Below the pieces are notes generated by a model. It was given only the letters and a program-made list of their open reading frames with translations. It searched no databases and was not told the DNA's origin. Shown one piece after another: positions 2,698 through 31,196 of a stretch of 64,000 bases of DNA; position 1 is the first letter of the stretch; each line of letters opens with the position of its first letter. Source of the DNA: Bacteroidota bacterium. Lineage in GTDB: Bacteria > Bacillota > UBA4882 > JAAYXC01. The stretch covers positions 5,313 to 69,312 of the forward strand of contig JBLNCE010000150.1 of assembly GCA_050260415.1 (NCBI GenBank). The letters are read 5' to 3'. Made by a program: the position numbers and the translations under genes.

Positions 2698-3867
2698 CTA
2701 TGCACGGTATCTCGAGCGATCGGTGACGGCTTCTTCTCCCAACAACGCAACCGCCAGTTCCTGCATGGCGGCCTTCTTCCTGGCCATGCTGATATGGCCA
2801 TACGTATCCGCGGTTATCTGCACCCCGGCGTGCCGGGCGATGGCCGAGACCGTCTTAAGATCCACGCCCAGATCCAGGAGCAGAGAGATCGACGTGTGCC
2901 GCAGATCGTGCAGCCGCATATGAGGCAGTCCCGCGAACTCCAAATCCTCCCTGAATGCCTTATTCACATGGCTCACGTCTCGCGGATACCCAAGCGGATC
3001 CGTGAACAGCAGTGGGCCGTTCTCCCCGAGATCGGGGCAGGCCTCGCCAAGGTAGGCCCGTTCGTTCTCGCGCTGTTTAATAACCCTTTCGAACTCGGCG
3101 GCCAGGATAGGCAACAGCGGCAGTTCTGCCTCGCTGGCGTCGCTCTTAATCCAGAACTCCGGCTCCTTGCCTCCATGCACCAGGCCCTGAGTTATTTTCA
3201 CCACCAGCCGGTCAAGGTCAATGTCGGGGATTCGGATGCCTAGCAGTTCGGATCGGCGCAACGCCAGAAGTAGCAATGTCAGCCAGTACACCCAGCAAGG
3301 GCGCCCCCGTGTCACCCGTAGAAAGTGCTTTGCCTCTTCGACGGTCATCTGCCGGAATTTCTTCTTGTGTGCTCGCGGAGGATCGGTCAGCTTCGCCACA
3401 TTGGTTGTGATCAGTTGCCACTTGCAGGCCTGTTGTAGAGCCGCCCGTAGGGTTCGATGCGCATTGCGCACTGTCAGTGCCGACAGGCCTTTCGCGAGCA
3501 GGTCATGGTAGGCGTCTTGTATGATATCGGGAGTAAGCTTGCGGAGTAGATATTTCCCCAGCTTGGGACGCAGATAAAGCCGGATGTGCTTTTTATAGCC
3601 CCGTATTGTATTGGGGCTGAGGCCTTTTTTGTCTATATAGGCTTCCCAGCGGTCAAAGAAGGCGCTGACCTTTAGCTTGCTGTCAGGCAGAGGTTCTCCT
3701 TTATTGAGACGCGCCAGCATGTCCGCGCAATACGCTTCGGCATCGCGCTTGAGCCCGCGGATCGTCGCGGTATGATATTTCGGTGCGCCGGATTCATACC
3801 GCTCGCCAGTCGGGATGAAGACACGCCAAGAGCCTTTGCCCTGCGGTTGGATGTGCCCAGTGGCCAT
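2698..3867 (-). CDS. int: tyrosine recombinase / phage integrase
   Basis: C-terminal catalytic region HDLRHTSISLLLDLGVDLKTVSAIARHAGVQITADTYGHI (R..HxxR..Y pattern). N-terminal SAM-like domain. Adjacent to attL. Confidence 0.9.
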   Translation of the reverse strand: MATGHIQPQGKGSWRVFIPTGERYESGAPKYHTATIRGLKRDAEAYCADMLARLNKGEPLPDSKLKVSAFFDRWEAYIDKKGLSPNTIRGYKKHIRLYLRPKLGKYLLRKLTPDIIQDAYHDLLAKGLSALTVRNAHRTLRAALQQACKWQLITTNVAKLTDPPRAHKKKFRQMTVEEAKHFLRVTRGRPCWVYWLTLLLLALRRSELLGIRIPDIDLDRLVVKITQGLVHGGKEPEFWIKSDASEAELPLLPILAAEFERVIKQRENERAYLGEACPDLGENGPLLFTDPLGYPRDVSHVNKAFREDLEFAGLPHMRLHDLRHTSISLLLDLGVDLKTVSAIARHAGVQITADTYGHISMARKKAAMQELAVALLGEEAVTDRSRYRA

Positions 3868-7187: not shown

Positions 7188-8225
7188 TTGGCCAGTAATA
7201 CGATTACGGCCGCCGACGTAGCGCGACTTGAGACTCAGTTGGCCTCGCTCAAGCGCCAGGACATCGCCATGCTCGGCGACGGCCAGGTGTTCATTCGGCG
7301 GCTTCCGAACGGTGGGCAGATCCGGGCCGTCAAGGGCGCCATCGTGCTCAGGGAGCATAACGGTGAGATCGCCGGGATCCAAGGCAAATGGATGACCACT
7401 TCCAAAGGGTTCAACTCCCTGAATCAAATCGCCGGGCTCTCCATCATCACCCCTGAAAGATTGGTCCTGCCCAGCGGGGAGACCGTGGTCAACCCATACC
7501 CGCTGCAGGATCCGGAGAGCGGATCGATAGCCAAGGTCTGGGTGAGGAAGCTTGCAATCGGCTACGGTCCAACCGGCAATCTGGTCGTCACCAGCGCCAC
7601 GCTGCTCTACGACATCAAGATATACTTCATCCAGGACGTGCTCAAGAAGGTCAACAAGAGCAAGGATGCGGGCCGGGTGTGCCTGGAAAGCCAACTCACG
7701 GACAATGAGAAAGCCTCCGGCCTGTTCCTGCGTATCGACGGGCAGATGGGCATCTGGGCGAACTACTGTCACAGCGAGATCCTGACGGCCATGGAGACCT
7801 TCGTCAACAAGAAGCTCTTCGCCGAACGAAATGCCCAGAGCATTGCCGAACGGCTGGTCATGGCCAAGCACCCGGCTTTGGCGCATGCCGCCTATGTCGA
7901 TGTGACCGGGCCGGATAGAAACCATGCGACCCGTGTCCCGGTGGTCGGATTCGTGAACGACCTGACCCGTGAGCAGATGATGGACATCACTGCACAAGCT
8001 GAACGTGGAGACATCGAGATTCAGGTCGGCGGCCAGAAGGCTCAAGTCGTCGAGATCACGGGCGCCGCCTCGATGGAGGACATCGAGACCGAGAAAGACG
8101 CCGAAGAGGAGACAGCCACCAATACCACCACCGAACACTCGTCCCATGCTGAGACCGGCAACTCAAGCGGGCCATCGGGCGCTGCCCACAAATCGCTCTT
8201 TGATGTCGGAGGTGAACGGCTTTGA
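7188..8225 (+). CDS. hypothetical protein; possible single-strand annealing protein by position only
   Basis: 345-aa ORF immediately after the exonuclease, with an acidic C-terminal tail. No family motif recognised. Confidence 0.5.
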   Translation: MASNTITAADVARLETQLASLKRQDIAMLGDGQVFIRRLPNGGQIRAVKGAIVLREHNGEIAGIQGKWMTTSKGFNSLNQIAGLSIITPERLVLPSGETVVNPYPLQDPESGSIAKVWVRKLAIGYGPTGNLVVTSATLLYDIKIYFIQDVLKKVNKSKDAGRVCLESQLTDNEKASGLFLRIDGQMGIWANYCHSEILTAMETFVNKKLFAERNAQSIAERLVMAKHPALAHAAYVDVTGPDRNHATRVPVVGFVNDLTREQMMDITAQAERGDIEIQVGGQKAQVVEITGAASMEDIETEKDAEEETATNTTTEHSSHAETGNSSGPSGAAHKSLFDVGGERL

Positions 8226-10399
8226 TTGATGCGATTTATTACAGGAACCTCAAAGGCCAAACTTGCGCTCAGCAGCTCACCGGCCGTGACATCTTCATCG
8301 GGCCGAATGGATCCGGGAAGACCTCCCGGATCCAGGCCCTCGGCCTCTCCATGCTCGGCTACGTGCCGGGCAACGGCAAGACGGAGGCCGAGACATTCAA
8401 GTTGGCCACGGGCCAGGTTATGTCGGTTGGTTTGCATACTTCCGATCAGTTCGGATTCGAGCGCCAGTTCGTCAAGAATGAGGACTACAACCGCAAGACC
8501 GGCGAACGGACGGTCAAGATCACCCAATCCATCCAGGTCTTTCCCGGCCGGGGCGAGGCAAACGACACCCAGCGGAAGGCGCGGATCGCCGAGGAGGTCG
8601 GAAGCTTCCCGGTCATGCTCGACTTCAACGAGTTTCTCGCTCTCTCTGATGCCAAGCGGCGCGCCTTCTGGTACGGCCTCTCGCCGATCATGGCGTCTGA
8701 GTGGAGCAAGGACCGGATTCGGGAATACCTGGCCGAGCATCTCCTTACTCCCGAACTGCAACAAAATAACCCGGAGCACTACCAGGTCATGCAGGAACTG
8801 ATCGCCGAGGCCATGGCACAATTCCCGGCCGGCTACAGCGTCAGCGACGGCCTCCAGGCCATGATTGACTGGGTAACCCCCAAGCTCAAAACCGAGAAGG
8901 GCAAGAAGCAGGATGCCCAGGGCGCAGTGCGTCAACTGGCCGAACTCAAGAACAAGCTGGAGGAGACCGACCGGAACATCGAGGCCGAACGGGCCGAGTT
9001 GGAGAAACTCCGGCAGAAACTGGTCGAGGTTGAGAAGCAGATCTCCAGGGACACAGAAAAGAAGCGGATCTTCGACGAACGCAATCGCCGGATCGAGGAG
9101 TTGCGTAACATCATCGCCAGATTGGAAGCGCCAGAGAAGCCGGCGCAGGAGGAATCGGCGCCTGCACAAGAGGAGACAGTTAGTCTGGCGGACCTGGACA
9201 AGCAGCTTGCCGATCTTCGCGCGCAACTGGTCACTGTCGACTCATCGGCCGTTGATACGCTCGAAGCGAGGCAGACAGAGATCGCCGCGGCCGTCGAGCC
9301 TCTCAACAAGCGCAGGGAGGAACTCGCGGGGAAGCTCACCCAGAACCGGGCGGGCTTAGCCACGTTGGAGGAATCCCTCAAGACCATCAACGGGCTCAAT
9401 GGGGTCTGTGTCATCGACAAGCGGATCGGCTGTGACAAGGACTTCACCAAGTATCGCGCTTGGGTTGAAAAGAAGCGGGTAGAGGCCTCGGCGGAAATCG
9501 CCCGGCTCCAAACCGAACTCAATGGCGCGATCAAAGAACTCAACGCCCTCCTAGATGAGGAACGACAGAACAAGGAAACCATCCGCCAGTTGCTCGAGGA
9601 AGGGAAGAACGCCAACAAGCGAAACAGCGAACTCAATGAGCAGATCGCCGAACTGGAGCGCAAACGAAACGAGATCCTCACGGCTGACGATCGGCGTCAA
9701 GGCCAGATCAAACTCCATCGCGACGAACTCACCCGACTCATGAACGAGCCGGCAGACCCCATCGCCCCGTTGGATATTCTGGAAAAGCAGGCCGAGGGCT
9801 TCCGGACCAGGATTGAGGTGCTCACCGCCTCGGTCGAGGAGAAGACAAAGGCGCGGCAGACCCTCGTCTTGATGCAGCAGTCAATGCTAGAAAACAAGAC
9901 TGCCGAACTCAAGGCCGCCTGCCTGAAGAGCATCTCCGAATCACTTGGCCCCAAGGGCATCCAGGGCGAGCTTGTCAAGGAAGTTCTTGGCCCGATCAAG
10001 GATGACATCCAGGCGAACTTGCGAACCATGGGCTTCGATCGCGAACCGTTCTTCGAAACCGAAAGCGACACGGGCAAGGAGATCTTCCAGTTCGGGTGGA
10101 TTAACGAGAAGGGCCATCGGGTCAACTTCGACGCCTTGTCCGCAGGCGAGCAGACAATTTTTTTGGCTGCGATGATGACAACCATCATCAGCCGAGCCAA
10201 TCCCAAATTGAAACTGCTCGTCATCGATAACCTGAACCACCTGGATCGCCAGAATCTGCAGCTTGCGCTGAATGGGCTGGGGCGCATCTCTGGCCTGGAT
10301 AATATCGTGCTGGCCGGTGCAATCGAGTTCCCGTTCGAGGCGGACGGGTGGAAAGTGTGGTTGCTCCGGCCCGAGAAGGAGGCGAGCGAGGTTGCCTGA
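8222..10399 (+). CDS. SMC/Rad50/SbcC-like ABC ATPase with a long coiled-coil insert
   Basis: Walker A GPNGSGKTS. About 350 aa rich in heptads (E/K/L/Q). Signature-like LSAGEQ and Walker B LLVIDNLNHLD near the C-terminus. Confidence 0.75.
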   Translation: MIDAIYYRNLKGQTCAQQLTGRDIFIGPNGSGKTSRIQALGLSMLGYVPGNGKTEAETFKLATGQVMSVGLHTSDQFGFERQFVKNEDYNRKTGERTVKITQSIQVFPGRGEANDTQRKARIAEEVGSFPVMLDFNEFLALSDAKRRAFWYGLSPIMASEWSKDRIREYLAEHLLTPELQQNNPEHYQVMQELIAEAMAQFPAGYSVSDGLQAMIDWVTPKLKTEKGKKQDAQGAVRQLAELKNKLEETDRNIEAERAELEKLRQKLVEVEKQISRDTEKKRIFDERNRRIEELRNIIARLEAPEKPAQEESAPAQEETVSLADLDKQLADLRAQLVTVDSSAVDTLEARQTEIAAAVEPLNKRREELAGKLTQNRAGLATLEESLKTINGLNGVCVIDKRIGCDKDFTKYRAWVEKKRVEASAEIARLQTELNGAIKELNALLDEERQNKETIRQLLEEGKNANKRNSELNEQIAELERKRNEILTADDRRQGQIKLHRDELTRLMNEPADPIAPLDILEKQAEGFRTRIEVLTASVEEKTKARQTLVLMQQSMLENKTAELKAACLKSISESLGPKGIQGELVKEVLGPIKDDIQANLRTMGFDREPFFETESDTGKEIFQFGWINEKGHRVNFDALSAGEQTIFLAAMMTTIISRANPKLKLLVIDNLNHLDRQNLQLALNGLGRISGLDNIVLAGAIEFPFEADGWKVWLLRPEKEASEVA

Positions 10400-10550
10400 G
10401 TTGCTCAAGTGCGGCGTCCCCGACTGCAGCCGGGAGGAACCAGTGCTCTACAGCTACTACTGTCCCGACATCGCGCCAAGATCGATGGGGATCTCCATCT
10501 GCTCCGTCTGTCTCAAGGAGCGCAAGGACAAGGAGGCCGGCAAGAAATGA
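10392..10550 (+). CDS. possible small zinc-ribbon protein
   Basis: TTG-initiated 52-aa frame bridging the ATPase and helicase genes. KCGVPDC...CSVC cysteine pairs. Ends by overlapping the helicase ATG. Confidence 0.3.
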   Translation: MPELLKCGVPDCSREEPVLYSYYCPDIAPRSMGISICSVCLKERKDKEAGKK

Positions 10551-12406
10551 ACCTCCTTGACGGTCTGAATGATGCCCAGCGGGCGGCGGTGGTCTCCACC
10601 GCCCCCGTCCTCCTCTGTCTGGCCGGCGCCGGGAGCGGGAAGACGACAGTCCTCACCCGTCGCGTGGCCTACTTGCATCAGACACAGCGGATCGGCACGT
10701 CGAACATGCTTTGCTTGACCTTCACGCGCTTGGCGGGGAAGGAAATGAAGGAGCGCATCATGCGCCTGGTCGGGGAGCAGGAGGGCAAAAAGCTCTTTTG
10801 CAACACGTTCCATGCGTTCAGTGTTGCCGTCTTGCGCGACTGGGGCAAGCGGATCGGCATCGAGCCGAACTTCAGCATCTACGACCCCGAGGATCGGGAG
10901 TCTATCCTCGGCGGAATTATCGCCGACTTCGGCGGCCGGACCACTCTGAAGAAGGTCCTGGACCGGTTCGAGCATTGCCAAGACGTAAACGAGGAACGCG
11001 CCAAGTTTCCCGAAGAATGCCGTGTGCTTGAGGAATACGGGTATCGCTTACGCCAGAACAATGCCGTGGACCTGGACCGGCTCATCGACCTTGTAAACAA
11101 GCTTTGGACCCAGCACCCCGACGTGCTCCAGCACTACAAGCGCACCTACACCCACGTCTTCGTGGACGAATTTCAGGACACGAACGACGAACAGATGCGG
11201 CTCCTGGAGCTGCTTCATCCCGACAATATCTTCTTCGTCGGCGACGATTACCAGGCCATCTATGGATGGCGCGGCGCCCGGGTGGAGTTCATCATCGAGC
11301 TGCCGGCGTACCGGCCGGACTGTGAAGTCGTCAAGTTGGAGGACAACTACAGGAGCACCCATCCGATCGTGGCCGCGGCCAACGCCGTGATCGGCCACAA
11401 CGCGCACCAGACGTCCAAAACGCTTAGGGCCCATCGTGATGGACAACCGGTCTCGGTCAAGGTGCTACCAGACGTAGCGGAAGAGGCCGGGCAAATCATC
11501 CGCGACATTCGCGATCTACATGGCAGTGGCGATGTTGCCTCGTACCGTGATATCGCCGTCTTGGCCCGGACAAATGCGCATGTTGAACGGCTCAGATGGT
11601 ATCTAGACATGGCTTACATCCCGACAACCTTAGTCTCCGAAGGTGATGACCCGTTCAAGAAGCCGGATATAAAGGGCCTCATGGCGTGGATGGACATCAT
11701 GACGAACAACCGTGACTCCGTTAACCTGCAACGGGCTCTGGCCTTCCCGCAAGAGTTCATCCCCTATATCGCATTCCAGCAGATCAAGCTCGACGCCTTG
11801 CGGCGGGAAGTCTCGGTCCTGGACGCCGTGTTCGACTCGGCTCTCGCGAGCAAGTTCCGTGAAGTCGCGGGGCGGATCGGGGAGCGCCTGAAGTCGTGCG
11901 AACAGGGCACGGCCTCCGAGTTGCTCGGCATCCTCATCGACGAGCTCGGCGTCAGGAAAATGTACGAGGAGAAAGGGCTCACGAACCGTATGCAGGACGC
12001 GAACCGCGCCTATGCCGCAATGCTCCGCTGGGAGGATTCAAAGCGGGTGCTCGGCGAGGAATGCGGGGTCCGGGCGTTCCTGAAGTGGCTCCGGTACCGC
12101 GATGTCCAGGAGAAACTGATTCAGGAGCACCAGGACGCCGTACGGCTCATGACCGTACACGCCGCCAAGGGGTTGGAGTTCCCGGCGGTGTTCGTGGCCG
12201 GCGTGGCCGATGGAGTGTTCCCGTCGAAACGGGCTTTGGACATCGAGGAGGAGCGGCGCCTGTTCTATGTGGCGCTCACGCGCGCGAAGGACTACCTGAC
12301 CGTCACCTGTCCGCAGACTGTCGAGGGGTGGGGCGGGAAGCCATTGGTGGCGGGGCAGAGTAAGTTCCTTGCTGAGATGGGGGTGTCGCATGGTGCATGT
12401 TCCTGA
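10547..12406 (+). CDS. UvrD/PcrA/Rep-family superfamily-1 helicase
   Basis: LNDAQRAAV...AGAGSGKTTVL (motif I), VDEFQDTN (motif II), YRST, VHAAKGLEF, YVALTRAK. ATG at 10547 follows an AAGGAGG RBS. Confidence 0.9.
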   Translation: MNLLDGLNDAQRAAVVSTAPVLLCLAGAGSGKTTVLTRRVAYLHQTQRIGTSNMLCLTFTRLAGKEMKERIMRLVGEQEGKKLFCNTFHAFSVAVLRDWGKRIGIEPNFSIYDPEDRESILGGIIADFGGRTTLKKVLDRFEHCQDVNEERAKFPEECRVLEEYGYRLRQNNAVDLDRLIDLVNKLWTQHPDVLQHYKRTYTHVFVDEFQDTNDEQMRLLELLHPDNIFFVGDDYQAIYGWRGARVEFIIELPAYRPDCEVVKLEDNYRSTHPIVAAANAVIGHNAHQTSKTLRAHRDGQPVSVKVLPDVAEEAGQIIRDIRDLHGSGDVASYRDIAVLARTNAHVERLRWYLDMAYIPTTLVSEGDDPFKKPDIKGLMAWMDIMTNNRDSVNLQRALAFPQEFIPYIAFQQIKLDALRREVSVLDAVFDSALASKFREVAGRIGERLKSCEQGTASELLGILIDELGVRKMYEEKGLTNRMQDANRAYAAMLRWEDSKRVLGEECGVRAFLKWLRYRDVQEKLIQEHQDAVRLMTVHAAKGLEFPAVFVAGVADGVFPSKRALDIEEERRLFYVALTRAKDYLTVTCPQTVEGWGGKPLVAGQSKFLAEMGVSHGACS

Positions 12407-20849: not shown

Positions 20850-21440
20850 ATGGCAAAGAGAAAGCGCCGCAAGGTTCGAGAGAAGACTCCGCCGCCGCCC
20901 CCGCCAAAGCCCTGGGAACAGCAACAAGGGGAGACGGCGAAGGCGTTTGCGGCATTCTCCGCTTACCGGGATATGGGGGCCGAACGCAGTCTTTCAAAGG
21001 TCTCTCATGTGTTATCCAAATCCAAGCCCCTTCTTCAGCGTTGGTCGAGCACCTATAGCTGGGTGGAAAGGGTTGAAGCATGGGACCGATTCACCGCGCG
21101 CCAGGAACAGGAGGCAGCGCTCAAGGCTCGCCTGGACATGTCGGCGCGGCACGCAAAAGCGGCCATGGTATTGATGCAGAAAGCGTTGCAGAAATTGGCC
21201 AAGATGAAGCCCGAAGAACTGGAACCGGGCGATGTGGCGCGGTTCATCGATACTGCGGTCAAGATCGAACGAGTGGCACGCGGAGAGCCGGCCGACATCA
21301 TTCGAACGGAGGATGGCGGCGAGCGGACGGTGACCGACGATGAACGGAACGAGCTCGCCAAGAAGGTCCTCGGTGACAAGAGAGCCCGGCGATTACTCAG
21401 AGACCTATATCGATCAACTAGAGACGCTATGGAGAGCTGA
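20850..21440 (+). CDS. terminase small subunit (putative)
   Basis: Basic N-terminus MAKRKRRKV, HTH-like FAAFSAYRDMGAERSLSKVSHVL. Lies immediately upstream of the large terminase. Confidence 0.55.
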   Translation: MAKRKRRKVREKTPPPPPPKPWEQQQGETAKAFAAFSAYRDMGAERSLSKVSHVLSKSKPLLQRWSSTYSWVERVEAWDRFTARQEQEAALKARLDMSARHAKAAMVLMQKALQKLAKMKPEELEPGDVARFIDTAVKIERVARGEPADIIRTEDGGERTVTDDERNELAKKVLGDKRARRLLRDLYRSTRDAMES

Positions 21441-22851
21441 CGCCCGGGATAGCTTGGTCTTCTTTTGTGAGTACACCTCTAATGGCACCTGGCAGCCGGC
21501 GCCGCACCTGGAGATCCTTTGCGATCACCTGGAGGCGGTGGAACGCGGGGAGATCCGCCGGCTGATCGTCGATATGCCGCCTCAACATGGGAAATCCGAG
21601 GTGGCTGACCGCAAGTTCCCCGCGTGGTATCTGGGCAGACACCCGATGCGCCGTATCATGTTGACCGCGTATGGCGACGATCTGGCTTATGACTTCTCGC
21701 GCGCATCACGTGCATGCTTTGAGGAGTGGGCGCCGGAACTCTGGGGGCTGCGCCTGTCCGGAAGGAGTTTCGCGGTCGGGCGCTGGGATATCCTCAAGTG
21801 GAACGGCGGTATCACCGCGGGCGGCATTGGTGGCCGGTTGACCGGCCGCGGTGCCTGGTTGGCCATCGTCGACGACCCGATCAAGAACTGGGAGGAGGCC
21901 AACAGCCCCACCTACCGCGAGCGTGTCTGGAACTGGTATCAGACCGTCCTACGGCCGCGCGTTCATCCCTTGGGCGCCATCGTGGTCATCATGACCAGGT
22001 GGCACGAGGATGATTTGGTCGGCCGGCTGCTCAAACAGCAGGAACTGGGCGGCGAAAAGTGGACGGTCTTGAAACTCCCCGCCCTGGCCGAGGAGGGGGA
22101 TCCCCTCGGGCGGGTCCCGGGCGAGCCGCTTTGGCCGGAACGGGGATATACCCGGGAATGGTACGAAGAGACCAAGCGCGGCATGGCACCATTGCAGTGG
22201 GCGGCCATGTATCAGCAACGCCCAAGTGCGGCGGAAGGTAATCTGTTCAAGCGGTCCTACCTGCGGTATTTCACCCGAAAGGGTGATTTTTATTATCTGG
22301 CTAGGCCGGAGGGAGTCGAGAAGGTCCTGGCCAGGCGGTGCTGGATCTTCCAAACCTGCGACCCGGCGGCCTCTACTGATGGCTCGGCGGATCACTTCGT
22401 CTTGGCCACATGGGCTGTGACGCCGAAACGCAGTCTGTTGCTCCTCGACGTGGTACGCGAACGCTTGGAGGAACCGGATCAGCCGATCCTCTTCACTAAC
22501 GCGCAGAAGCGATGGCATCCCGCCCTGCAAGGCGTGGAGAAAAACGGGCTTGGCATCGCGCTGTACCAGCAATTGAAACGCCTGGGCCTGCCAATAGTCA
22601 GGCTAAAGGCGGATAAGGACAAGTACACCCGGGCGCTCCCGGCGGCGGCCAGGTTCTCCGCGGGCGAAGTGTTTCTCCTCGAAGGGGCACCGTGGCTTGG
22701 AGATTATGAAGACGAACTCCTCAGGTTCCGCCAGAACGCGGAACAGGACGATCAAGTTGATGTTACCAGTTACGCGGCCATCGTGCTCGTGCAGTACAGC
22801 GACAAGTACGGAGGATCCGCCGGCGGGGAAGCCAGTGCGAAGATCATCTGA
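21340..22851 (+). CDS. terminase large subunit
   Basis: Walker A-like PPQHGKSE, Walker B LAIVDDP, coupling motif MTRWHEDD, C-terminal RNaseH-like nuclease region. The start is uncertain and overlaps the TerS gene. Confidence 0.85.
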   Translation: MNGTSSPRRSSVTREPGDYSETYIDQLETLWRADARDSLVFFCEYTSNGTWQPAPHLEILCDHLEAVERGEIRRLIVDMPPQHGKSEVADRKFPAWYLGRHPMRRIMLTAYGDDLAYDFSRASRACFEEWAPELWGLRLSGRSFAVGRWDILKWNGGITAGGIGGRLTGRGAWLAIVDDPIKNWEEANSPTYRERVWNWYQTVLRPRVHPLGAIVVIMTRWHEDDLVGRLLKQQELGGEKWTVLKLPALAEEGDPLGRVPGEPLWPERGYTREWYEETKRGMAPLQWAAMYQQRPSAAEGNLFKRSYLRYFTRKGDFYYLARPEGVEKVLARRCWIFQTCDPAASTDGSADHFVLATWAVTPKRSLLLLDVVRERLEEPDQPILFTNAQKRWHPALQGVEKNGLGIALYQQLKRLGLPIVRLKADKDKYTRALPAAARFSAGEVFLLEGAPWLGDYEDELLRFRQNAEQDDQVDVTSYAAIVLVQYSDKYGGSAGGEASAKII

Positions 22852-22865
22852 CGGAGGTGCCCTTC

Positions 22866-24407
22866 ATGGCAGATCAGGCGGTTGTCAAGGCTCGGGTCAT
22901 CTCCGCGCCGGTGGCCAGCAATAAGATGGCCGAGGATCCCTTTGCCCAAATGTACGGGGATGGCGGTGTGCTCGAACCGCTCTACGATCAGCAAATTCTC
23001 TCCCAGTTGCCCGAGTACAGCGACATTCTGCCGCAGTGCATTGGGGCCATGGAGACCAACGTCGATGCTTTCGGATTCATGTTCGATGAGCAGCCTTGGG
23101 TAAAGAAGGACAAGGACGGTAAACTGCCGCCGGAGGCCGAGGCCGAGAAACAGCGCCTGAATGATTGGTTCGAGTACTGCAACCCCGAGCTATCGTTCAC
23201 GGCTATCCGGCGCCGCACTCGGCGAGACTTGGAGTCAACCGGGAATGCCTACTGGGAGCTGCTGCGCAACGGCGTAGGGGAGCTCGCCGGCATCGAGCAT
23301 ATCGAGGCTTACACCATGCGCCTGACCAAGCTTGATTTGGAACCGATCGAAGTCACGCTTCCGGTCGTGCGTAATGGTAAGATCGAGGAGATTCGATACC
23401 TGCGCCGGTTCCGCCGGTTCGTCCAGATCCGCGACAACAGGAAGGTGTACTTCAAGGAATTCGGCGATCCGCGGCCAATCGACGCCAAGACTGGGCGCGT
23501 TCTGAACGAGCAGGAAGCCAAGGCCGAAGGCGTACTCCTGGCCACCGAGGTCCTGCACTTCACGCTCTATTCCTCGGCGTCTCCTTACGGAGTGCCGCGG
23601 TGGATCGGCTGCCTGCCGGCGGTCATGGGGAACCGCAAGGCCGACGAGCTGAACGGCGGCGCCTTGGACAATGCGAATGTGCCGCCAATCGCGATCCTTG
23701 TGAACAACGGCCGCCTGGCGAAGGGTGCCACCACGACAATCAAGCGATTCCTCCAGGAGGGGAAGGGCATCGGCATGTTCACCAAGGCGCTCCTCCTGGA
23801 AGTCGATGCGCCGATCGGCGAGCAGCAGAACGCCAACGTTAAGATCGAGAAGCTCACCGATGCCCAGACCCGGGACGCCATGTTCGTCAAGTACGCCGAC
23901 GCTAACCGAAAGAAGACTCGTTCGGCGTTCCGGCTCCCTCCCCTCTACACCGGGGAGACGGATGACTACACCCGGGCCACGGCCGACGCCTCGAAAGAGG
24001 TTGCCGACGAGCAGGTCTTCGGGCCGGAGCGTGACGAGTTCGACTTCATCATCAACCGCCGGCTTATGCCCGTCCTGGGCGCGCGGTTCTGGCGGTTCAA
24101 GAGCCTGTCGGCCACGGTGGACAATGCGGCGGCCATGACTGAAATGCTCAAGGTCTTCATCGAAGCCGGCTTCACGGTTCGTGAGGCGCGCGCGTATATG
24201 GAGGAGATCTTAAACAAGCCTCTGACCGACCCGGAGAACGCTGACTGGCTTGACTTGCCCGTGTTCGCGGCCAAGAGCGGGCCGGCGCCCGAGCCGGTGA
24301 CCCCTGAAGAAGAGCAGGCCGCCGAGGATAGGCGCGTGGAGAAACTGACCAGGCTTTTGACCCGGGTCCGCAAGCAGATGGAGGAGGAGACGCTTGGCCT
24401 CTCTTGA
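22866..24407 (+). CDS. portal protein
   Basis: About 514 aa, directly after TerL. Sequence pattern resembles PBSX-type portals. ATG is 6 nt after GGAGGTG. Confidence 0.75.
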   Translation: MADQAVVKARVISAPVASNKMAEDPFAQMYGDGGVLEPLYDQQILSQLPEYSDILPQCIGAMETNVDAFGFMFDEQPWVKKDKDGKLPPEAEAEKQRLNDWFEYCNPELSFTAIRRRTRRDLESTGNAYWELLRNGVGELAGIEHIEAYTMRLTKLDLEPIEVTLPVVRNGKIEEIRYLRRFRRFVQIRDNRKVYFKEFGDPRPIDAKTGRVLNEQEAKAEGVLLATEVLHFTLYSSASPYGVPRWIGCLPAVMGNRKADELNGGALDNANVPPIAILVNNGRLAKGATTTIKRFLQEGKGIGMFTKALLLEVDAPIGEQQNANVKIEKLTDAQTRDAMFVKYADANRKKTRSAFRLPPLYTGETDDYTRATADASKEVADEQVFGPERDEFDFIINRRLMPVLGARFWRFKSLSATVDNAAAMTEMLKVFIEAGFTVREARAYMEEILNKPLTDPENADWLDLPVFAAKSGPAPEPVTPEEEQAAEDRRVEKLTRLLTRVRKQMEEETLGLS

Positions 24408-27400
24408 GCATATCGCGGCGTGCCTTCTGATCCCGGTCAGCAAGGACACCCGGGCAGACCTGATCGGCAAGCTGGACCTGGCCGGGATATTGGATACCAT
24501 CGGCAAGGTCGAGAGCAGCCTGGGCGTTCTCTATCTGCACTCGTGGGACACGGCCATGCAGGCTGCCATCGCCGCGGCCAGCGCGGTCTTCAACGCCGGC
24601 AAGGGGCCAATCGGGGAGAAGGACATCGCGGCCGCCCTGGATGCCATGGCGGAGGAACTCGGGCCGGGCATGCAGGAGCTGACGGCGGAGCAGGCAGGCA
24701 AGCTCTTGTCAGCCAGTTACCTCCTCGGCCGGCACCTAGCCGCGAAGTTCGCCGAGTTCACGCCCAAGCTCCAGCAGATCGACGAACTGGCGCAAGCGTG
24801 GCTCAAGGCTGACAACTTCTATTGGGTCGGGAATTACTACTCGGCCCAGCTCGGGCAGACCATCTCGGATGCCGTCAGACACCTGGCGATCGAACAAGGC
24901 CTCGGCCGCGATGACGTTGGTAGGGCGCTCAAGGCGACCTTCGGCAGCCAGTTCAAGGACCAGACCGGTACCTACTGGCGAGGCCTGGCCGGAACCGCGG
25001 CGGAACGCGCCCGGTCGTTCGGCGGGGTTCAGTCGCTCGTCGAAGCCGAGGTCGATGAGTACGAGATCCTCCCCGTGGGCGATGAGCGCACCTGCGACAA
25101 GTGCATGGAGCTCGCCAAGCACACCTTCCGAACCGAGCACGCTGTAGCCCTGCGGGATGCGGTCATGGCCGCGGACAATCCCGAGGCGATAAAGGCTTTA
25201 CACCCATGGCTTTCCATGGAGGAGGTCCAGGGCGCCAGCACAGAGGAACTGGTGGGGTTGGGCCAGGCCCTCCCCCCTTACCACTTCTGGTGCCGTTGCA
25301 CATACGTGGTCACCTCGTTCAGTGAGACGGTGGCCAAAGCCGTCCCGCTTGAACTGAAGGTCGAACAGCCGGCGCCGGCGCAGGAGACGTTGCCCGGCGA
25401 TCTGGGCAATCTGGAGTTCCTGGGCAGTGGGGCCCACCTGGGCGGCGCGGGTGAGAAGTACATCTACCGCGATCCAGCCACTGGCCAGGCGTATCTGTTC
25501 AAGCCGGCGGTAAGCAAGAGCGGCTCGCCTGAGCCATTCCGGGCCTACGTACAGCAGGGCGCCTCGGACGTGGCTAAGCGGATCTATGGCCCTGGTGACT
25601 TCATCGAGATCAAGGTCGTCACCGATCCGAATGGCCGCCTGGGGACGTTGCAGCAACTCCTGCCGGACGTCGCCGGCGACCTGAAGAAGATCCAATGGCA
25701 ATCGCTGACCCCGGAGCAACTGAAGCGCGTCCAGCGGGAGCACGTCCTCGATTGGGCGATCGGCAACTTCGATAGCCACCCGGGGAACTTCATCGCTGCT
25801 GGCGGCCAGATCTATGGCATTGACAAAGAGCAGGCTTTTCGGTACCTAGCACAGGGCGACTCCTGGAAGATGTCTCTGACCTACCACCCGAACGCCAAGT
25901 ATGGGGAGGTCGAGCCCCTCTACAATACGATCTACCGGGCTTTCGCCAAAAACGAGGTTGACCTCGATCTGCAGACGGTCCTCCCGGCTCTGCAACGGCT
26001 TGAAGCGATCCCGGACATCGAGTATCGAGCCATCTGGCGGCCATACGCGGAGGTCCTGAAGGGCAAGGGGCAGGCTGCAGAGGACCTGCTGGACCTGATC
26101 GTCAAGCGGAAACACGAGGTACGGGAGCAGTTCAAGGCATTTTACACCGACCTCCTGAAGGCGCGGTATGGCGGCGGTGGCAAGGCGTTCAAGGTCAAGT
26201 TCCTGTTCGCCGACGAGACAACCGGCTCAGGCCTCGAGGAGTTGCCCTTGGCCGCCCGCGTGCTGACCAAGGCGGAATTGCAGGCCATGGACCTTAAGAG
26301 CCTAAAGCAGTTGGCCAAGGCCCAGAAGATCAAGTACGGCTCCCAGATGAATAAGGCCGAACTCGTCGAGGCCCTGGCCGATCCGGATAACGCGGCGGCC
26401 GTGAGCGTGAAGGCCAAGGAGAGGCTCCGCGCGACGCTGGAGGCGAAGCTCGCCAGGCAGGCGCCAAAAGTCATTCCGATGCCCACCCCATTGGGGACGG
26501 ACCCCTTCGATGACCTGGCTGCGATTCCCGCCCGCCGGCATGGCGTGGCCGTGCGACGCGACAAAAAGATCGTCGAGGGGCAACAGGTCAATATCTGCCG
26601 GATCAACGCCGCGGGGCGTGAGGGTTGGCGGCTGAATTGCAAGATCACAAAGCCGCATCATGCTCAGATCGAGGCGGCCATGCGCCAGGCCGGAGCGAGG
26701 GAGACATACCTACGCCGGCCAATGGGCAACTGGACGAAGGGCGTCCTGGAATTCGACGACGTAGGCGGCAACGTCGTCAAGGCGTTGCAGATGACCACCC
26801 AGGCCCACGGTGCCACGGTCGAGATCCGTTTCGTGCCCGATGGGATCGATAAGATTCACGCCATGGATGGGTATTTCGAGGCGCGGGTCTTCGGCGCCCA
26901 GGGGCAGGCGGCGGCCACCGCCTTGAGAGAGTCGTTAGATAAACTCGGCCTGGCCGACCTGGCGGGAGTGCCCGGTCCGGAAGACGAGCAGATTATGCGC
27001 TTGTCCCGACTCCTTTGGCAACACGCTCCGGCGGTTGAAGCCAAGATGCCGCTGCAGGGCCGCACTGTGGATGCTCTGGAGCAGGCTTTACGCGGCGTGG
27101 GCGTTGACCCCGCTCGGGCCGCCCGCTTGGTAGAGAAAGAGGTTGTGCCGGGCTATGTCACGTATACTGATATTGAGGTCGCAAATGAATGCCGGCAAGC
27201 CGGGGCAATTTATGCCTGGTGCGGGGTCGAGGACCTCGATGACGTGGTAAAAATTGTATCCCCCGGTGGAACGGGTTTGGCCTCGACCAGGCTCCGATGG
27301 TTCGACTGCCTATCCGGGAAGGGAGCGAGCGAATCATCGGACATGAAATGCGGCGGCGCGGATAGCGCGTTCCTCCGTCTGGCTGTTCAATCTGTACAGG

Positions 27401-27759
27401 GGAAGGCGTCTTATAGTTCGTCGTTTGGGAATGGTGACTATCAGCTCATCTTCGATTTGAACGTTCTGGAACGAACAGACTGGTATTTCTACAGCAAAGA
27501 CAGTTTCGGCACGACCGCTCCGAGTTCGATGGCGCGGCGATTATCGCCCAAGGAATCGGTCACATATCTGAACAACAATTACCGCGGCGATAATGAGGTG
27601 ATGATGCGTCGCGGGGTAGGGCTGCAATATCTGACCGCGATCCATACCGATTCCGACTACAAACGGTTGAGCTTAATCAACAAGCTCAAGCAGCACGGGA
27701 TACATGAAATCAATCGGGTACCGGTGGAGAAGTTCGTCGTCGTACAAAGCCTTATATAG
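24394..27759 (+). CDS. 1121-aa polyvalent head protein: SPP1 gp7/Mu F-like morphogenesis domain fused to a protein-kinase-like domain, a Rho_N/SAP-like module and a low-G+C C-terminal domain
   Basis: gp7/MuF motifs DERTCDKC...PPYHFWCRCTYV (about 25081-25308). Kinase-like catalytic loop GNFDSHPGNFI plus YGIDKEQAF (25771-25830). LKSLKQLAKAQKIKYGSQMNKAELVEALA (about 26293-26380). The C-terminal roughly 200 aa are visibly AT-richer. Confidence 0.75.
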   Translation: MASLEHIAACLLIPVSKDTRADLIGKLDLAGILDTIGKVESSLGVLYLHSWDTAMQAAIAAASAVFNAGKGPIGEKDIAAALDAMAEELGPGMQELTAEQAGKLLSASYLLGRHLAAKFAEFTPKLQQIDELAQAWLKADNFYWVGNYYSAQLGQTISDAVRHLAIEQGLGRDDVGRALKATFGSQFKDQTGTYWRGLAGTAAERARSFGGVQSLVEAEVDEYEILPVGDERTCDKCMELAKHTFRTEHAVALRDAVMAADNPEAIKALHPWLSMEEVQGASTEELVGLGQALPPYHFWCRCTYVVTSFSETVAKAVPLELKVEQPAPAQETLPGDLGNLEFLGSGAHLGGAGEKYIYRDPATGQAYLFKPAVSKSGSPEPFRAYVQQGASDVAKRIYGPGDFIEIKVVTDPNGRLGTLQQLLPDVAGDLKKIQWQSLTPEQLKRVQREHVLDWAIGNFDSHPGNFIAAGGQIYGIDKEQAFRYLAQGDSWKMSLTYHPNAKYGEVEPLYNTIYRAFAKNEVDLDLQTVLPALQRLEAIPDIEYRAIWRPYAEVLKGKGQAAEDLLDLIVKRKHEVREQFKAFYTDLLKARYGGGGKAFKVKFLFADETTGSGLEELPLAARVLTKAELQAMDLKSLKQLAKAQKIKYGSQMNKAELVEALADPDNAAAVSVKAKERLRATLEAKLARQAPKVIPMPTPLGTDPFDDLAAIPARRHGVAVRRDKKIVEGQQVNICRINAAGREGWRLNCKITKPHHAQIEAAMRQAGARETYLRRPMGNWTKGVLEFDDVGGNVVKALQMTTQAHGATVEIRFVPDGIDKIHAMDGYFEARVFGAQGQAAATALRESLDKLGLADLAGVPGPEDEQIMRLSRLLWQHAPAVEAKMPLQGRTVDALEQALRGVGVDPARAARLVEKEVVPGYVTYTDIEVANECRQAGAIYAWCGVEDLDDVVKIVSPGGTGLASTRLRWFDCLSGKGASESSDMKCGGADSAFLRLAVQSVQGKASYSSSFGNGDYQLIFDLNVLERTDWYFYSKDSFGTTAPSSMARRLSPKESVTYLNNNYRGDNEVMMRRGVGLQYLTAIHTDSDYKRLSLINKLKQHGIHEINRVPVEKFVVVQSLI

Positions 27760-27770: not shown

Positions 27771-28145
27771 ATGATCGACAAAAGAGTCCTGTATACTATT
27801 GACGGTCCTTGGTTTCATCAGAACGGCGGTCACGCCTTGGCCAACTTCGTCGAGATCAGAGATGGCAATACTCTTTGTTTCGTCGATCCGGGCTCGGGCC
27901 GCGGCCACATGTTCCCCGGGAAACTGTTGCGGGAGACAAAGGACGGCTTTGACTGGCATTGGCTGGTGCCGCCTTTCGGACCGCTTGAGGCGGAAGATCG
28001 GGGGACGGTTGCAGCCCGCGTGGTCACCCTGGCGCGGTACTATGACGAGCTCGTCCCCGCAGGGGTCGTGCGAAACCCCATCGAACCACGGCCGCAATCA
28101 GATCAGGAATTCTGGGAGTTGTACCGGAGGATGGCCAAGGGATAA
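27771..28145 (+). CDS. hypothetical protein (moron; possible partner or immunity protein of the upstream C-terminal domain)
   Basis: 124-aa ORF starting 12 nt after the fusion protein. Followed by a tandem 12-nt repeat and a weak hairpin with a T-run. Confidence 0.5.
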   Translation: MIDKRVLYTIDGPWFHQNGGHALANFVEIRDGNTLCFVDPGSGRGHMFPGKLLRETKDGFDWHWLVPPFGPLEAEDRGTVAARVVTLARYYDELVPAGVVRNPIEPRPQSDQEFWELYRRMAKG

Positions 28146-28231: not shown

Positions 28232-28840
28232 ATGGAGGTTTGCCTCGGAATCGAGCCGGTCATGCAACCCCGTCCTTCTCGAAATTCTGGCGGGGATTGC
28301 TTTGCTTGCGCCATGACGGCCGCGCTCAGGTATCTATACCCTGATGTCGAGACGACTTTTGATCGAGCGTTCGAACTGTTCCGCGAGAAATATTACCAGA
28401 GTGAAAAGACATGCATCGCGAATGATTGGGTCGGCCTGCAACATGCGCTCGACAAGGCCTGCGACGAGTTTGGGTCCCTTGAAGTCGAAATCGACATCGT
28501 CGATCCCCGCTTCAACCTAAAGCACTTCGGCTATGGTTGGCTGCTTGCCTTGGAGAGTGACCGCTATGTTCTAAGGTTGGAGGGATGGCTCCGGGGCGGA
28601 TGGGTGGCCTTCACCCAGATCTCCTTCTCCGGTGGCGGACCGCTGGCCGTAATTGACCACTTCGTACTGATCGACGGGGTCAGGAAGCTTTGGGAGCCGA
28701 TGGAATCAGGGGGGAGCTCCTTGAACGAGTACGTCCACGTGGTCTGCTCGGTCAAGGGGGCATATTGGATTCGCGCTTTGGACTTCCTGCGCAATCACGG
28801 CGGCGCGGCGCTCATGCTTTGCCGGCGCGAACAATATTGA
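28232..28840 (+). CDS. putative papain-fold cysteine peptidase (C39-like)
   Basis: NSGGDCFACAMTAAL (candidate nucleophile Cys) and IDHFVLIDG (candidate His), in the order expected for C39/papain-like enzymes. Confidence 0.4.
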   Translation: MEVCLGIEPVMQPRPSRNSGGDCFACAMTAALRYLYPDVETTFDRAFELFREKYYQSEKTCIANDWVGLQHALDKACDEFGSLEVEIDIVDPRFNLKHFGYGWLLALESDRYVLRLEGWLRGGWVAFTQISFSGGGPLAVIDHFVLIDGVRKLWEPMESGGSSLNEYVHVVCSVKGAYWIRALDFLRNHGGAALMLCRREQY

Positions 28841-28857: not shown

Positions 28858-29328
28858 ATGGTGCTCGCGGAGATCAGCAAGGCGCGGACCCCGGCGAAGG
28901 GAGATCCAGGCGGGCAGCAGGTTGAGAGGGTCGTCGCCTTCAAGCGTGTCGATTCGGCGCAACAGATCGTCTATGGGGAGGTCTACATCCCCAATGTCCG
29001 GGACACGCACGGGAACTGGATGACAGCCGAGGAAATTGAGAAGATGGCCCACCGGTTCCTCATGAAGTTCCGCAATACACAGATCGACCTGCAGCACGAC
29101 ATGGAGCCTGATGAGGGCGCCGTGGTCGAGTCGTTCATCGCCCGCGAGAACGACCCCGACTTCACCCCGGGGGCCTGGGTACTGGCAACCAAGGTCTTCA
29201 AGACCGAGACCTGGACGGCCATCATGAACGGGGAGATCACCGGGTATTCCCTATATGGCCTGGGTGTTTTAATTCCTGACGAACCCGATGACGAGGGCGG
29301 AGAGGGAGGTGATACGGGTGGCCAATAA
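28858..29328 (+). CDS. XkdF-like prohead protease
   Basis: VYGEVYIPNVRDTHGNWMTAEEIEKMAHRFL resembles the PBSX XkdF family. GGGAGGTGG RBS. Precedes the scaffold and capsid genes. Confidence 0.6.
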   Translation: MVLAEISKARTPAKGDPGGQQVERVVAFKRVDSAQQIVYGEVYIPNVRDTHGNWMTAEEIEKMAHRFLMKFRNTQIDLQHDMEPDEGAVVESFIARENDPDFTPGAWVLATKVFKTETWTAIMNGEITGYSLYGLGVLIPDEPDDEGGEGGDTGGQ

Positions 29329-30181
29329 CCAGACCCCGCCGCCTGGGGAGCTTCGTGACGTCGATGTGCAGCTCGTGTCCCTGGTCGATAAGGGCGCGAA
29401 CCGCTGCAAGTTCAAGATCTTCAAGCAGGCAGGTGAGATCGTGAACAAGGTTTTGGGTAAACAGGATACGGCCATAGCGCCGGCACCGCCGCCGAGCTTC
29501 CAACAGCGCATGCAGGCCGAGGCCGCCGAGGAAGCGACCAGGAACGGTTTCTGGGCGTTCCGTTCGACGATTGAGGATATCCTGCGCAGTGAAGCCGTAA
29601 CGGACAAGCTCGCGGCGATCGGCGCGACCTTCGAGGAGTTCAAGACCTGGCTCCTGGCGCGGGTGACTCTCCTGGGCCTCACCAAGGCGGCCGAGGAGAT
29701 CAGCAGCATCGAGCGGGTTGTGCTCGAAAAGGCCGGCAAGAAGATCAGCGCCGAACGGTTAGGCAAACTCAAGGCAGCCTTGGCTGCCCTCAATGAGGTC
29801 GTGACCGAGGCCGAGACGGAAGACAACAATCCGGAAGGGGGAAAAACGAACGTGAGTAATTCCACCACGCAGACCCAGCCCGACAAGCTGGACGAGATCC
29901 TGAAGGCGGTGAACGGCATCGCCACCCGCGTCGAGGCTTTGGAAAAGGCCGCGGCGGGGACCGAACCGCCCACAGGCGATCCGCCGGCAGAAGAACCTCC
30001 CGCGGGCAACCCGCCGACCGACCAAACCGCGCAGAAGCTCGACGAGGTGCTCAAGACTGTCAATGGCATCGCCACCCGCGTCGAGGCTTTGGAGAAAGCC
30101 CGCGGCGGTTCCAACCGGATCCCCGAAACGACCGAAGTCAAAAAGGCTGAAGAGGGATTCTGGGGCGGCAATTTCATCTAG
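29318..30181 (+). CDS. scaffolding protein with an internal duplication
   Basis: Helical, Ala/Glu/Lys-rich. Duplicated KLDE(I/V)LK(A/T)VNGIATRVEALEKA segments separated by a Pro-rich linker. Position is before the major capsid gene. Confidence 0.6.
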   Translation: MANNQTPPPGELRDVDVQLVSLVDKGANRCKFKIFKQAGEIVNKVLGKQDTAIAPAPPPSFQQRMQAEAAEEATRNGFWAFRSTIEDILRSEAVTDKLAAIGATFEEFKTWLLARVTLLGLTKAAEEISSIERVVLEKAGKKISAERLGKLKAALAALNEVVTEAETEDNNPEGGKTNVSNSTTQTQPDKLDEILKAVNGIATRVEALEKAAAGTEPPTGDPPAEEPPAGNPPTDQTAQKLDEVLKTVNGIATRVEALEKARGGSNRIPETTEVKKAEEGFWGGNFI

Positions 30182-30269: not shown

Positions 30270-31196
30270 TTGACCAGCAATCGCGCCATGCTGCGTAAGG
30301 ACGCGATCACCACCGGCGCTCTGGCGACCGGCGGGCAGCTCAACCCGCAACAGGCGGACAAGTTCATCGATTACATGGTGGAGCAGACGCAACTGCTCCA
30401 GGACGTCACGGTCATCCGGATGAACTCCAACAAGTACGATCTCGACACCATCGGCGTCGGCAGCCGCATCATCAGGAAGGCGGTCGAGGCCACGGAACCC
30501 ACGGAGACCGCCGGCATCAGCACCGGCAAACGGCAGCTCAGCACAACCGAGATCATCCTGCCGTTCGACATCTCGTTGTCGTTCCTTGAGGACAACATCG
30601 AGCGGGCGGGCGCGGAGGACCACATCGCGCGGCTCTTCGCGCAACAGTTTGGGAACGACCTCGTGGACCTGGCCGTCAACGGCGACGTAGACGCGGGTGC
30701 GGGTCCCGACCAGGCATTCCTCAGCATCGAGAATGGGTGGCTCAAGATCCTGTTCGCCGTTGGCTCCGGCGCTCACATCTACGACAACAACGCCAGTCAG
30801 GACTTCAAGGGCGTAGTCTTTCCGGCCATGCTGGCGCAACTGCCGAACAAATTCAAGAACAACCTGCCGGATCTGCGGTTCTATGTCTCGCCCACGGCCG
30901 AGGAGGCCTACAGGTCCCAGCTCTCCACGCGGCAGACGGCGCTCGGCGACGAGTACACAGCCACGGGCAAGCGCGCCGAATTCATGGGCGTCAAGGTCGT
31001 GCCCATCCCGTATCTGCCGGTCGATATCCACCTGCTCACCCCGCGGCTCAATCTGTGCGTCGGCATCCAGCGCCAGATGACCACGGACAAGGAGCGCAAG
31101 CCGCGCAAGCGGATCATGGAGTACACCATGACCGCCCGGATCGACTTTGAGGTGAAGAATCCGGACGCCGTGGTCGCTTCCAAAAACATGCCATAA
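30270..31196 (+). CDS. major capsid protein (HK97 fold expected)
   Basis: 308 aa, placed after the protease and scaffold. N-terminal QADKFIDYMVEQTQLL...IRM and LPFDISLSFLEDNIE are typical of this capsid family. Confidence 0.75.
   Translation: MTSNRAMLRKDAITTGALATGGQLNPQQADKFIDYMVEQTQLLQDVTVIRMNSNKYDLDTIGVGSRIIRKAVEATEPTETAGISTGKRQLSTTEIILPFDISLSFLEDNIERAGAEDHIARLFAQQFGNDLVDLAVNGDVDAGAGPDQAFLSIENGWLKILFAVGSGAHIYDNNASQDFKGVVFPAMLAQLPNKFKNNLPDLRFYVSPTAEEAYRSQLSTRQTALGDEYTATGKRAEFMGVKVVPIPYLPVDIHLLTPRLNLCVGIQRQMTTDKERKPRKRIMEYTMTARIDFEVKNPDAVVASKNMP

Follow-up and report, generated by a model that had tools for sequence, protein, structure and literature searches.

A multidomain head-protein gene beside the portal

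We analysed a stretch of 64,000 nucleotides from contig JBLNCE010000150.1 (hereafter the window, meaning the stretch at its full length), focusing on a single gene at 24394-27759 (+ strand) that encodes a 1121-aa polyvalent head protein with a predicted MuF-kinase-HeH-beta-ART architecture (ART, ADP-ribosyltransferase). The gene begins with a TTG codon, is preceded at a distance of 5 nt by a GGAGGAGGAG ribosome-binding site, and overlaps with its start the portal stop codon at 24407. A homologue search with the 1121-aa protein retrieved 31 other proteins, including 23 full-length orthologues of 1109-1136 aa that align with it end to end at 29-84% identity. Since these align over their whole length, the open reading frame (ORF) is, as judged from the alignments, one genuine gene; an assembly artefact, or two or three separate genes read as one, is contradicted. 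The latter possibility had been raised in a first-pass annotation of this DNA, which gave the coordinates, strand and length of the ORF correctly, and all the motifs that it quoted are present at the residues given below.

The N-terminal region (residues 1-130; 24394-24783) shows conservation among close family members alone, and presumably contributes to a head/portal-association module. It is followed by the MuF/SPP1 gp7 core (residues ~131-310; 24784-25323), which includes the motifs DERTCDKC (residues 230-237) and PPYHFWCRC (residues 294-302), and in which D230, R232, C237, P294, H297, C300 and R301 are invariant among the orthologues. The window protein itself scores below the curated cut-offs of both relevant profiles, with E 1e-3 and 20.3 bits against Pfam Phage_Mu_F (PF04233; cut-off 29.6) and E 1.8e-5 and 25 bits against TIGR01641 (cut-off 39.65), and its MuF part matches several PHROG minor-head families. 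However, P0026 (51.1 bits) and P0028 (47.6 bits), both of them orthologues of full length, exceed the Pfam cut-off and the gene sits after the portal, which supports the MuF/gp7 domain proposed in the first-pass annotation. The order portal, then head-protein gene, is conserved in three related loci (L004, L005 and L007). One orthologue (P0016, 1471 aa) carries a Hint/intein insertion, at residues ~318-671, exactly at the invariant Cys (equivalent to C300) of the MuF PPxHxxCRC motif; inteins usually occupy functionally critical sites.

Residues 341-600 (25414-26193) correspond to a predicted protein-kinase-like domain. The AlphaFold2 model of this segment, built from 19 orthologues, has a mean predicted local distance difference test score (pLDDT) of 89.3 and shows the kinase secondary-structure elements in canonical order. 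Comparison of the model with the PDB by Foldseek retrieved 771 chains at E<=0.001, and the best 50 of these 771 are all protein kinases or kinase-fold proteins; among the matches listed, PknB ranks first by E-value and an N-terminal fragment of Legionella LepB by template modelling (TM) score on the query. The catalytic residues fall in the expected elements of the model: a Gly-rich loop (residues 349-355), K370 (nt 25501-25503), the catalytic loop D460-x-H462-x-x-N465 (nt 25771-25788) within GNFDSHPGNF (residues 457-466), and the metal-binding D477 (nt 25822-25824) within YGIDKEQAF (residues 474-482). Among 54 relatives drawn from widely differing settings, all retain K370 and D477, 52 retain D460, 52 retain N465 and 51 retain G350; Q480, part of a family signature G-I-D-K-E-Q, is invariant. 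No other part of the protein is as well conserved, identity here being 64-72% as compared with ~50% over the full length. The model, its Foldseek matches and the conservation of the catalytic residues thus support a bilobal kinase-like fold of the D-x-H-x-x-N flavour with intact catalytic residues. The first-pass annotation had located such a region after residue ~330, and structure prediction finds both the fold and the residues there.

The affinity to named kinase families is weak, and is to HipA_C and to PI3_PI4_kinase, the latter a kind named in the first-pass annotation. HipA_C gave sub-threshold matches in 7 of the 19 orthologues (best E 6e-3) and PI3_PI4_kinase in 5 of the 19 (best E 1e-2), none reaching a curated cut-off; in these profile searches P0030 attained 23.9 bits against a cut-off of 27.1. 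With HipA_C, PI3_PI4_kinase and LepB-type atypical kinases the domain shares the kinase-like fold, the D-x-H-x-x-N loop and a metal-binding Asp 17 residues further on; it differs in that the HipA_C and PI3_PI4_kinase matches all lie below the gathering scores and in the signature of its own. Nothing in Pfam, NCBIfam or PHROGs matches the family at a curated cut-off, PADLOC gave no match either, and the kinase profile found among PDB sequences only a citrate synthase at chance level (E 0.8). The kinases described in polyvalent proteins by Iyer et al. 2017 (PMC5512222) belong to a different lineage, being of Ser/Thr/Tyr type, without a C-lobe, and from Verrucomicrobia and Bacteroidetes.

Between the kinase-like domain and the C-terminal module lies a Rho_N/SAP-like helix-hairpin (residues 625-662; 26266-26379; motif LKSLKQLAKAQKIKYGSQMNKAELVEALA at residues 634-662), putatively a nucleic-acid-binding element. 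The hairpin, also recognised in the first-pass annotation, is only weakly borne out in the window protein (Pfam Rho_N, E 1.4e-3, below cut-off; PHROG matches at E 2.7e-5), and in orthologue P0026 it rises above the Pfam cut-off at 28.9 bits. The remainder was modelled as residues 690-1121 (pLDDT 90.7), and consists of a beta-rich domain and, after a helical stretch, an alpha/beta domain at the C-terminus. For the beta-rich domain (residues 716-850; with the helical linker 851-935, 26539-27198; pLDDT ~90) Foldseek returned no confident PDB match.

The last domain (residues 936-1121; 27199-27759), which is the segment of lower G+C discussed below, is predicted to have a DarT-like ART fold. In the Foldseek comparison of the 690-1121 model with the PDB the top eight matches are all DarT1 or DarT2 DNA ADP-ribosyltransferases, the best being E. 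coli DarT1 (8baq; E 1.9e-3, probability 1.00, TM 0.60 on the target); in a viral structure library the same model matched uncharacterised proteins of giant viruses, iridovirus 6, a betabaculovirus and phages. A HMMER scan with the ART domain profile gave 2273 cluster representatives (50% identity) at E<=1e-3, and among the best 146 of these the beta-rich domain accompanies the ART domain in 117. Twelve positions are invariant or nearly so in 147 representatives, namely R968 (144/147), S979, D983, G987, R995, R1027, D1029, D1036, G1039, R1049, N1067 and E1068 (147/147). R968 (nt 27295-27297), S979 (nt 27328-27330) and E1068 (nt 27595-27597) lie at a constant offset of +916 from R52, S63 and E152 of DarT1, an equivalence drawn from spacing alone. 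In DarT1, R52 is the phosphate-binding and proton-relay Arg, S63 replaces the Tyr of H-Y-E and E152 is the catalytic Glu (PMC11543638). At the sequence level the window protein has no match to Pfam DarT (PF14487), and its C-terminal module none in PADLOC or NCBIfam; in three sets of relatives, of which the last is of diverse members, weak DarT matches occur in 1/19, 2/76 and 5/32 proteins (best E 9.9e-5), DarT being the commonest weak family. Together with Scabin-like, the other weakly matched Pfam family, these are DNA-modifying enzymes. The beta+ART family as a whole has no match at curated cut-off in Pfam or NCBIfam, and no PHROG family.

The first-pass annotation had tentatively compared the motif order of this region with R-S-E ADP-ribosyltransferases. 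The ART part of that guess holds at the level of predicted fold, and the motifs TRLRW (residues 965-969), ESSD (980-983) and DNEV (1066-1069) contain or adjoin R968, S979/D983 and N1067/E1068, respectively. The R-S-E part does not hold, the domain being DarT-like. A classical R-S-E enzyme (ADPrib_exo_Tox or Alt-VIP2) was rejected, as there is no PF03496 or PF01129 match and no ExE/QxE motif, the beta1 position being Cys or Ala instead of Arg and the Glu motif D-N-E, or x-N-E in the family. The H-Y-D type (ART-PolyVal, Tox-ART-HYD2), to which the polyvalent ART of Iyer et al. belongs (PMC5512222), was rejected as well, with an invariant Glu on strand 5 and Ser at the strand-2 position. The comparison with DarT1/DarT2 (8BAQ, 7OMV-7OMY; PMC11543638) is closest, both in structure (residues ~905-1121) and in the Arg/Ser/Glu spacing, and the domain probably works like a DarT-type ART, to judge from the model. 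Nevertheless, we do not assign it to the DarT family: sequence matches stay below the curated threshold, the beta1 His is replaced by Cys, and no DarG macrodomain or NADAR partner is adjacent. Moreover, DarT1/DarT2 are toxins of two-gene defence toxin-antitoxin systems, while the ART described here sits inside a phage structural protein, preceded by an additional beta domain. MuF fusions are a known means by which phages inject enzymes, and two large unannotated enzyme families appear to meet inside this one.

Genomic partners of the kinase and ART domains

The kinase is repeatedly fused to, or encoded beside, ARTs of two unrelated families. Among the best 146 of the 2273 ART representatives it stands 5' of the ART module in 33, including proteins of 2000-3000 aa that lack this MuF type, and 107 of the 146 have no kinase. 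Fusions of the same kinase with an ART of the unrelated R-S-E type (ADPrib_exo_Tox) are seen in the MuF protein P0032, in P0055, and in two mycobacteriophage proteins, prophiFSQJ01-1 gp54 (kinase at residues 453-710) and Onyinye gp16. Linkage also occurs between separate genes: a phage-like contig (L001) has a stand-alone kinase gene followed by two ART genes, and on two actinomycete plasmids, Kitasatospora pKP058 (L014, 41479-44829) and Streptomyces clavuligerus pSCL3 (L015), a gene ending in the kinase is followed by one ending in a DarT-like ART. The kinase-ART combination is hosted by Firmicutes prophages, mycobacteriophages, a T4-like phage and actinomycete plasmids. On both plasmids two small, conserved ORFs of ~160 and ~141 aa (49% and 45% identical between the plasmids) come next after the pair; the ~160-aa ORF 3' of the ART has no PDB match and no macrodomain recognisable by sequence. 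The kinase domain also occurs apart from ARTs, since 51 of the 55 kinase-search matches carry none of the other domains examined, one of them in an ordinary chromosomal neighbourhood. In the 2030-aa gp195 of Mycobacterium phage Phrappuccino (L013) the same kinase opens a protein that adjoins a virion structural protein and has no recognised ART.

Linkage to the kinase goes with loss of the beta1 His of the ART. The beta1 His, kept in 64 of 147 ART representatives overall, is found in 5 of 34 kinase-linked and 59 of 113 kinase-free modules (Fisher p 1.3e-4, uncorrected for phylogeny).

The mycobacteriophage proteins are recorded as "minor capsid and ADP-ribosyltransferase fusion" (prophiFSQJ01-1 gp54, McProf gp54; Onyinye gp16), their kinase being left unannotated. 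They resemble the window protein in having a head N-terminus, the same kinase (E 5e-47 for prophiFSQJ01-1 gp54 and 2e-32 against the kinase profile), a C-terminal ART and a position after the portal gene, and differ in the ART type (ADPrib_exo_Tox, R-S-E), in a VG15 N-terminus, and in having neither beta domain nor the small downstream partner described next. The kinase can now be flagged in these records. No description of a kinase-ART pairing was found in the searchable literature: no kinase is listed among the MuF toxins of Jamet et al. 2017 (PMC5576092), and the MuF-fused ARTs named in a 2022 survey are Alt/VIP2 and N4-ART (PMC9503650). A link that spans two ART families, fusions as well as neighbours, and three kinds of mobile element is a "Rosetta stone" signal, of the sort that usually indicates a shared pathway.

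Directly downstream of the head-protein gene lies a conserved ORF of 124 aa (ORF124; 27771-28145, +). Homologues 71% and 38% identical to it sit directly 3' of orthologues of the 1121-aa protein, and in L004 and L007 the two genes overlap at their start and stop codons, in line with translational coupling. ORF124 has no match in Pfam, PHROG, NCBIfam, PADLOC or the PDB. We rejected it as a general partner of these ARTs, since it is not homologous to the ORF 3' of the distant kinase-ART protein P0031 or to the small ORFs 3' of the plasmid ARTs. An orphan homologue of 143 aa occurs in Caldicellulosiruptor owensensis OL (CP002216; L006, 6001-6432), adjoining a bAvd/23S_rRNA_IVP-like gene and a type I restriction-modification system (HsdM, HsdS, HsdR), with no MuF-kinase-ART gene within 6 kb on each side. 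By analogy with the small ORF that follows MuF toxins (PMC5576092), a layout that it fits, ORF124 is a candidate antidote/immunity protein or chaperone.

Proposed function and competing explanations

There is firm precedent both for MuF-toxin/polyvalent proteins and for packaged ARTs (PMC5576092, PMC5512222, PMC9503650). In this context, we consider it fairly probable that the 1121-aa protein is a virion-packaged two-enzyme polyvalent effector of a temperate, myovirus-like prophage. The N-terminal MuF/gp7 module would place a few copies in the procapsid beside the portal, by analogy with SPP1 gp7, and the rest of the chain would be cargo, entering the host together with the DNA. The first cargo enzyme would be an atypical protein-kinase-like phosphotransferase (residues 341-600), transferring phosphate from ATP; the second would be the two-part beta+ART module (residues 716-1121), with its DarT-type fold and conserved Arg/Ser/Glu set, using nicotinamide adenine dinucleotide (NAD+) to ADP-ribosylate a host target. 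Because the closest structures are those of DNA-modifying ARTs, four Arg are invariant and a Rho_N/SAP-like hairpin lies upstream, this target would most likely be nucleic acid. Given the repeated kinase-ART linkage, the kinase may act on the same pathway as the ART or gate it, with ORF124 as a possible antidote or chaperone. DarT is familiar as a toxin that defends cells against phages. If here it is the phage that packages a DarT-like enzyme, the usual roles would be reversed, and this would offer a route to phage-driven ADP-ribosylation of nucleic acid.

Several observations weigh against this proposal. The window protein lies below all curated family thresholds for MuF, Rho_N, kinase and DarT, and neither the whole protein nor the C-terminal and ART profiles found a match among PDB sequences. 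The structural match to DarT is moderate, its E-value of 1.9e-3 being accompanied by a TM of 0.32 on the 432-residue query. The position of the DarT1 beta1 His (H17) is occupied by C943 in the window protein and by Ala, Ser or Thr in close relatives, and since this His binds NAD+ in DarT1 the use of NAD+ is not assured. No macrodomain or NADAR antidote is found, with ORF124 and the following 202-aa ORF (ORF202) lacking Pfam, PHROG and NCBIfam matches, and ORF124 does not recur 3' of P0031. Finally, the co-occurrence counts of kinase and ART are uncorrected for phylogeny, and the association could be partly incidental because ARTs are the commonest effector of polyvalent proteins.

The alternative that survives best keeps the architecture and changes the target, so that the ART would modify a host protein, like T4 Alt, or hydrolyse NAD(P)+ as a depletion toxin. 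We regard this as possible but not likely. Proteins are the presumed targets of most ARTs that have been described as packaged or MuF-fused (PMC5512222, PMC9503650), and ART-fold NADases are known (PMC13285283). The absence of the beta1 His, and a similarity to DarT confined to the fold, would be compatible with either activity. However, no protein-targeting ART is found among the confident structural matches, of which the top eight are DarT, and the weak Pfam matches, DarT and Scabin-like, point to DNA as well; the four invariant Arg and the hairpin also fit a nucleic-acid substrate. T4 Alt and the E. faecalis EFV toxin resemble the window protein in that an ART in or with the phage head acts on the infected cell (PMC5512222, PMC5576092), and differ in belonging to R-S-E families, in modifying proteins and in lacking a kinase partner.

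In another scenario, which we find rather unlikely, the protein would be a MuF polymorphic toxin serving competition or superinfection control and not host takeover, and ORF124 would be the immunity protein that shields lysogens. The layout matches that of MuF polymorphic toxins and polyvalent proteins (PMC5576092, PMC5512222), in which a portal-adjacent MuF head domain of a temperate phage is followed by effectors, frequently an ART, and by a small ORF directly downstream: the window, a prophage, offers a MuF N-terminus, a predicted C-terminal toxin and an ORF of less than 150 aa. ORF124 is conserved, overlaps the putative toxin gene in relatives, and has the orphan homologue beside a type I restriction-modification system, with no toxin gene within 6 kb on each side. 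Furthermore, the ART module and ORF124 diverge together and faster than their surroundings, since between the window and L005 the ART region is 74-75% and ORF124 71% identical, as against 88-90% for the flanking portal, protease and capsid genes. On the other side, no fold or family can be recognised for ORF124, which is confined to the close prophage group. The C-terminus is not polymorphic: the 23 full-length orthologues all share the module, and P0032 and the mycobacteriophage proteins, the only ones to carry another ART, differ elsewhere too.

A bolder extension of the two-enzyme proposal, quite unlikely as it stands, is that kinase and ART form an obligate two-enzyme unit delivered by mobile elements, in which the kinase would prime the substrate or donor of the ART or switch the ART itself. 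The DarT-like versions would then turn a defence-type DNA/RNA-ADP-ribosylating toxin on the host, and ORF124 would represent a new antidote family. If so, a changed donor or a changed regulation would lie behind the disappearance, specifically from kinase-linked ARTs, of the beta1 His, a residue in contact with the 2'-OH of the adenosine ribose of NAD+.

Alternatively, the kinase-fold domain might not be an independent effector and might regulate the neighbouring ART, by modification or gating, keeping it silent in the producer or activating it after injection. A precedent exists in Legionella, where the kinase-fold glutamylase SidJ inactivates the SidE ART. The linkage of the kinase to two unrelated ART families, in fusions and in adjacent genes and usually upstream, would agree with such a role, as would its correlation with loss of the beta1 His, within the phylogenetic limit already given. 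Nevertheless, we hold it to be improbable: most kinase-search matches carry no other examined domain, one of them lying in a plain chromosomal context, most of the best ART modules do without the kinase, and the canonical phosphotransfer residues are all intact.

We next consider the composition of the C-terminus, which the first-pass annotation had described as clearly lower in G+C and as a recently swapped cargo module. The dip is real, though modest. G+C is 0.528 at 27130-27756 and 0.635 in the rest of the gene, which corresponds to z = -1.7 against all 627-nt windows of the stretch, 5.8% of which are as low; G+C at third codon positions (GC3) drops from ~0.8 to 0.61-0.68 in the 3' segment. 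Synonymous divergence (dS) from the 84% identical relative climbs as well: residues 1-700 give 0.5-0.75, the beta domain ~1 and the last 270 residues ~2, an approximately threefold rise, with values near 2 being saturated. However, that the last ~200 aa are foreign cargo recently acquired by the phage is highly improbable, as the module is aligned in every full-length orthologue (the last 186 residues being 37-46% identical across all full-length relatives), the 84% and 49% identical orthologues show the same G+C and GC3 dip at the same place, part of the dip is due to amino-acid composition (codon positions 1+2 fall to a G+C of 0.42), and the domain belongs to an old family of 2273 representatives. 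The pattern fits allele exchange or faster evolution of a toxin-plus-partner segment, and would not indicate acquisition of a new kind of cargo. Hardly any credence can be given to the view that the added domains have degenerated or serve structure alone, for instance as non-catalytic spacers or internal head proteins, for although the window protein reaches no curated family threshold, the ratio of nonsynonymous to synonymous divergence (dN/dS) against the 84% identical orthologue is 0.07-0.17 in every segment, indicating purifying selection, and catalytic-type residues are kept across 54 kinase and 147 ART relatives.

The surrounding prophage

The head-protein gene belongs to a head-morphogenesis cluster on the + strand. 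Upstream are the large terminase (21340-22851; 90% identical to an L005 gene carrying Terminase_6N) and the portal (22857-24407; 88% identical to an L005 gene carrying Phage_portal). Downstream follow, in order, ORF124, the 202-aa ORF, a prohead protease (a Peptidase_S78_2 homologue, its matching part starting at ~28861), a scaffold-like ORF (29288-30181) and an ORF in the major-capsid position (30270-31196). The same order of head genes, with a tail-sheath gene further on, is seen in three other loci, one being a chromosomal prophage of Biomaibacter acetigenes (CP033169); an orthologous prophage also occurs in the cultured Thermoanaerobacterium sp. DL9XJH110. The placing of the head-protein gene, after terminase and portal and ahead of protease, scaffold and capsid genes, is syntenic with four relatives. 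Near the left end of the window lies a tyrosine integrase (2698-3867, -), and towards the right end are host-like genes, namely an FtsZ/tubulin-family gene (57774-58901, +), either a host FtsZ or a phage- or plasmid-type TubZ, and a major facilitator superfamily transporter (60069-61496, +). Because of the integrase and the host-like genes beyond ~57 kb, we conclude that the window is an integrated prophage with host flanks.

Three further parts of the window merit mention. ORF202 (28232-28840, +; G+C 0.57), placed between ORF124 and the prohead protease, contains a Cys motif, GGDCFACAMT, and has no match in Pfam, PHROG, NCBIfam or PADLOC; none of the syntenic loci L004, L005 and L007 has it, so that a moron inserted here is a possibility. 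Among the early genes of the prophage a 725-aa ATPase of the AAA_23/SMC_N type (8222-10399, +) is directly followed by a 665-aa UvrD-family helicase (10409-12406, +), a layout that recalls the ATPase+helicase pairs of defence systems. Lastly, the lowest G+C stretch of the window (47885-48910, +; ~0.42, GC3 0.49) holds a 341-aa ORF without a Pfam match, flanked by a tail-fibre-like gene (46418-47866) on one side and a presumed lysis region (219-aa ORF, 49208-49867) on the other. Its product has a lipoprotein-like signal (…LLLVACVTLIPIGC…) and is a candidate moron or superinfection-exclusion lipoprotein.

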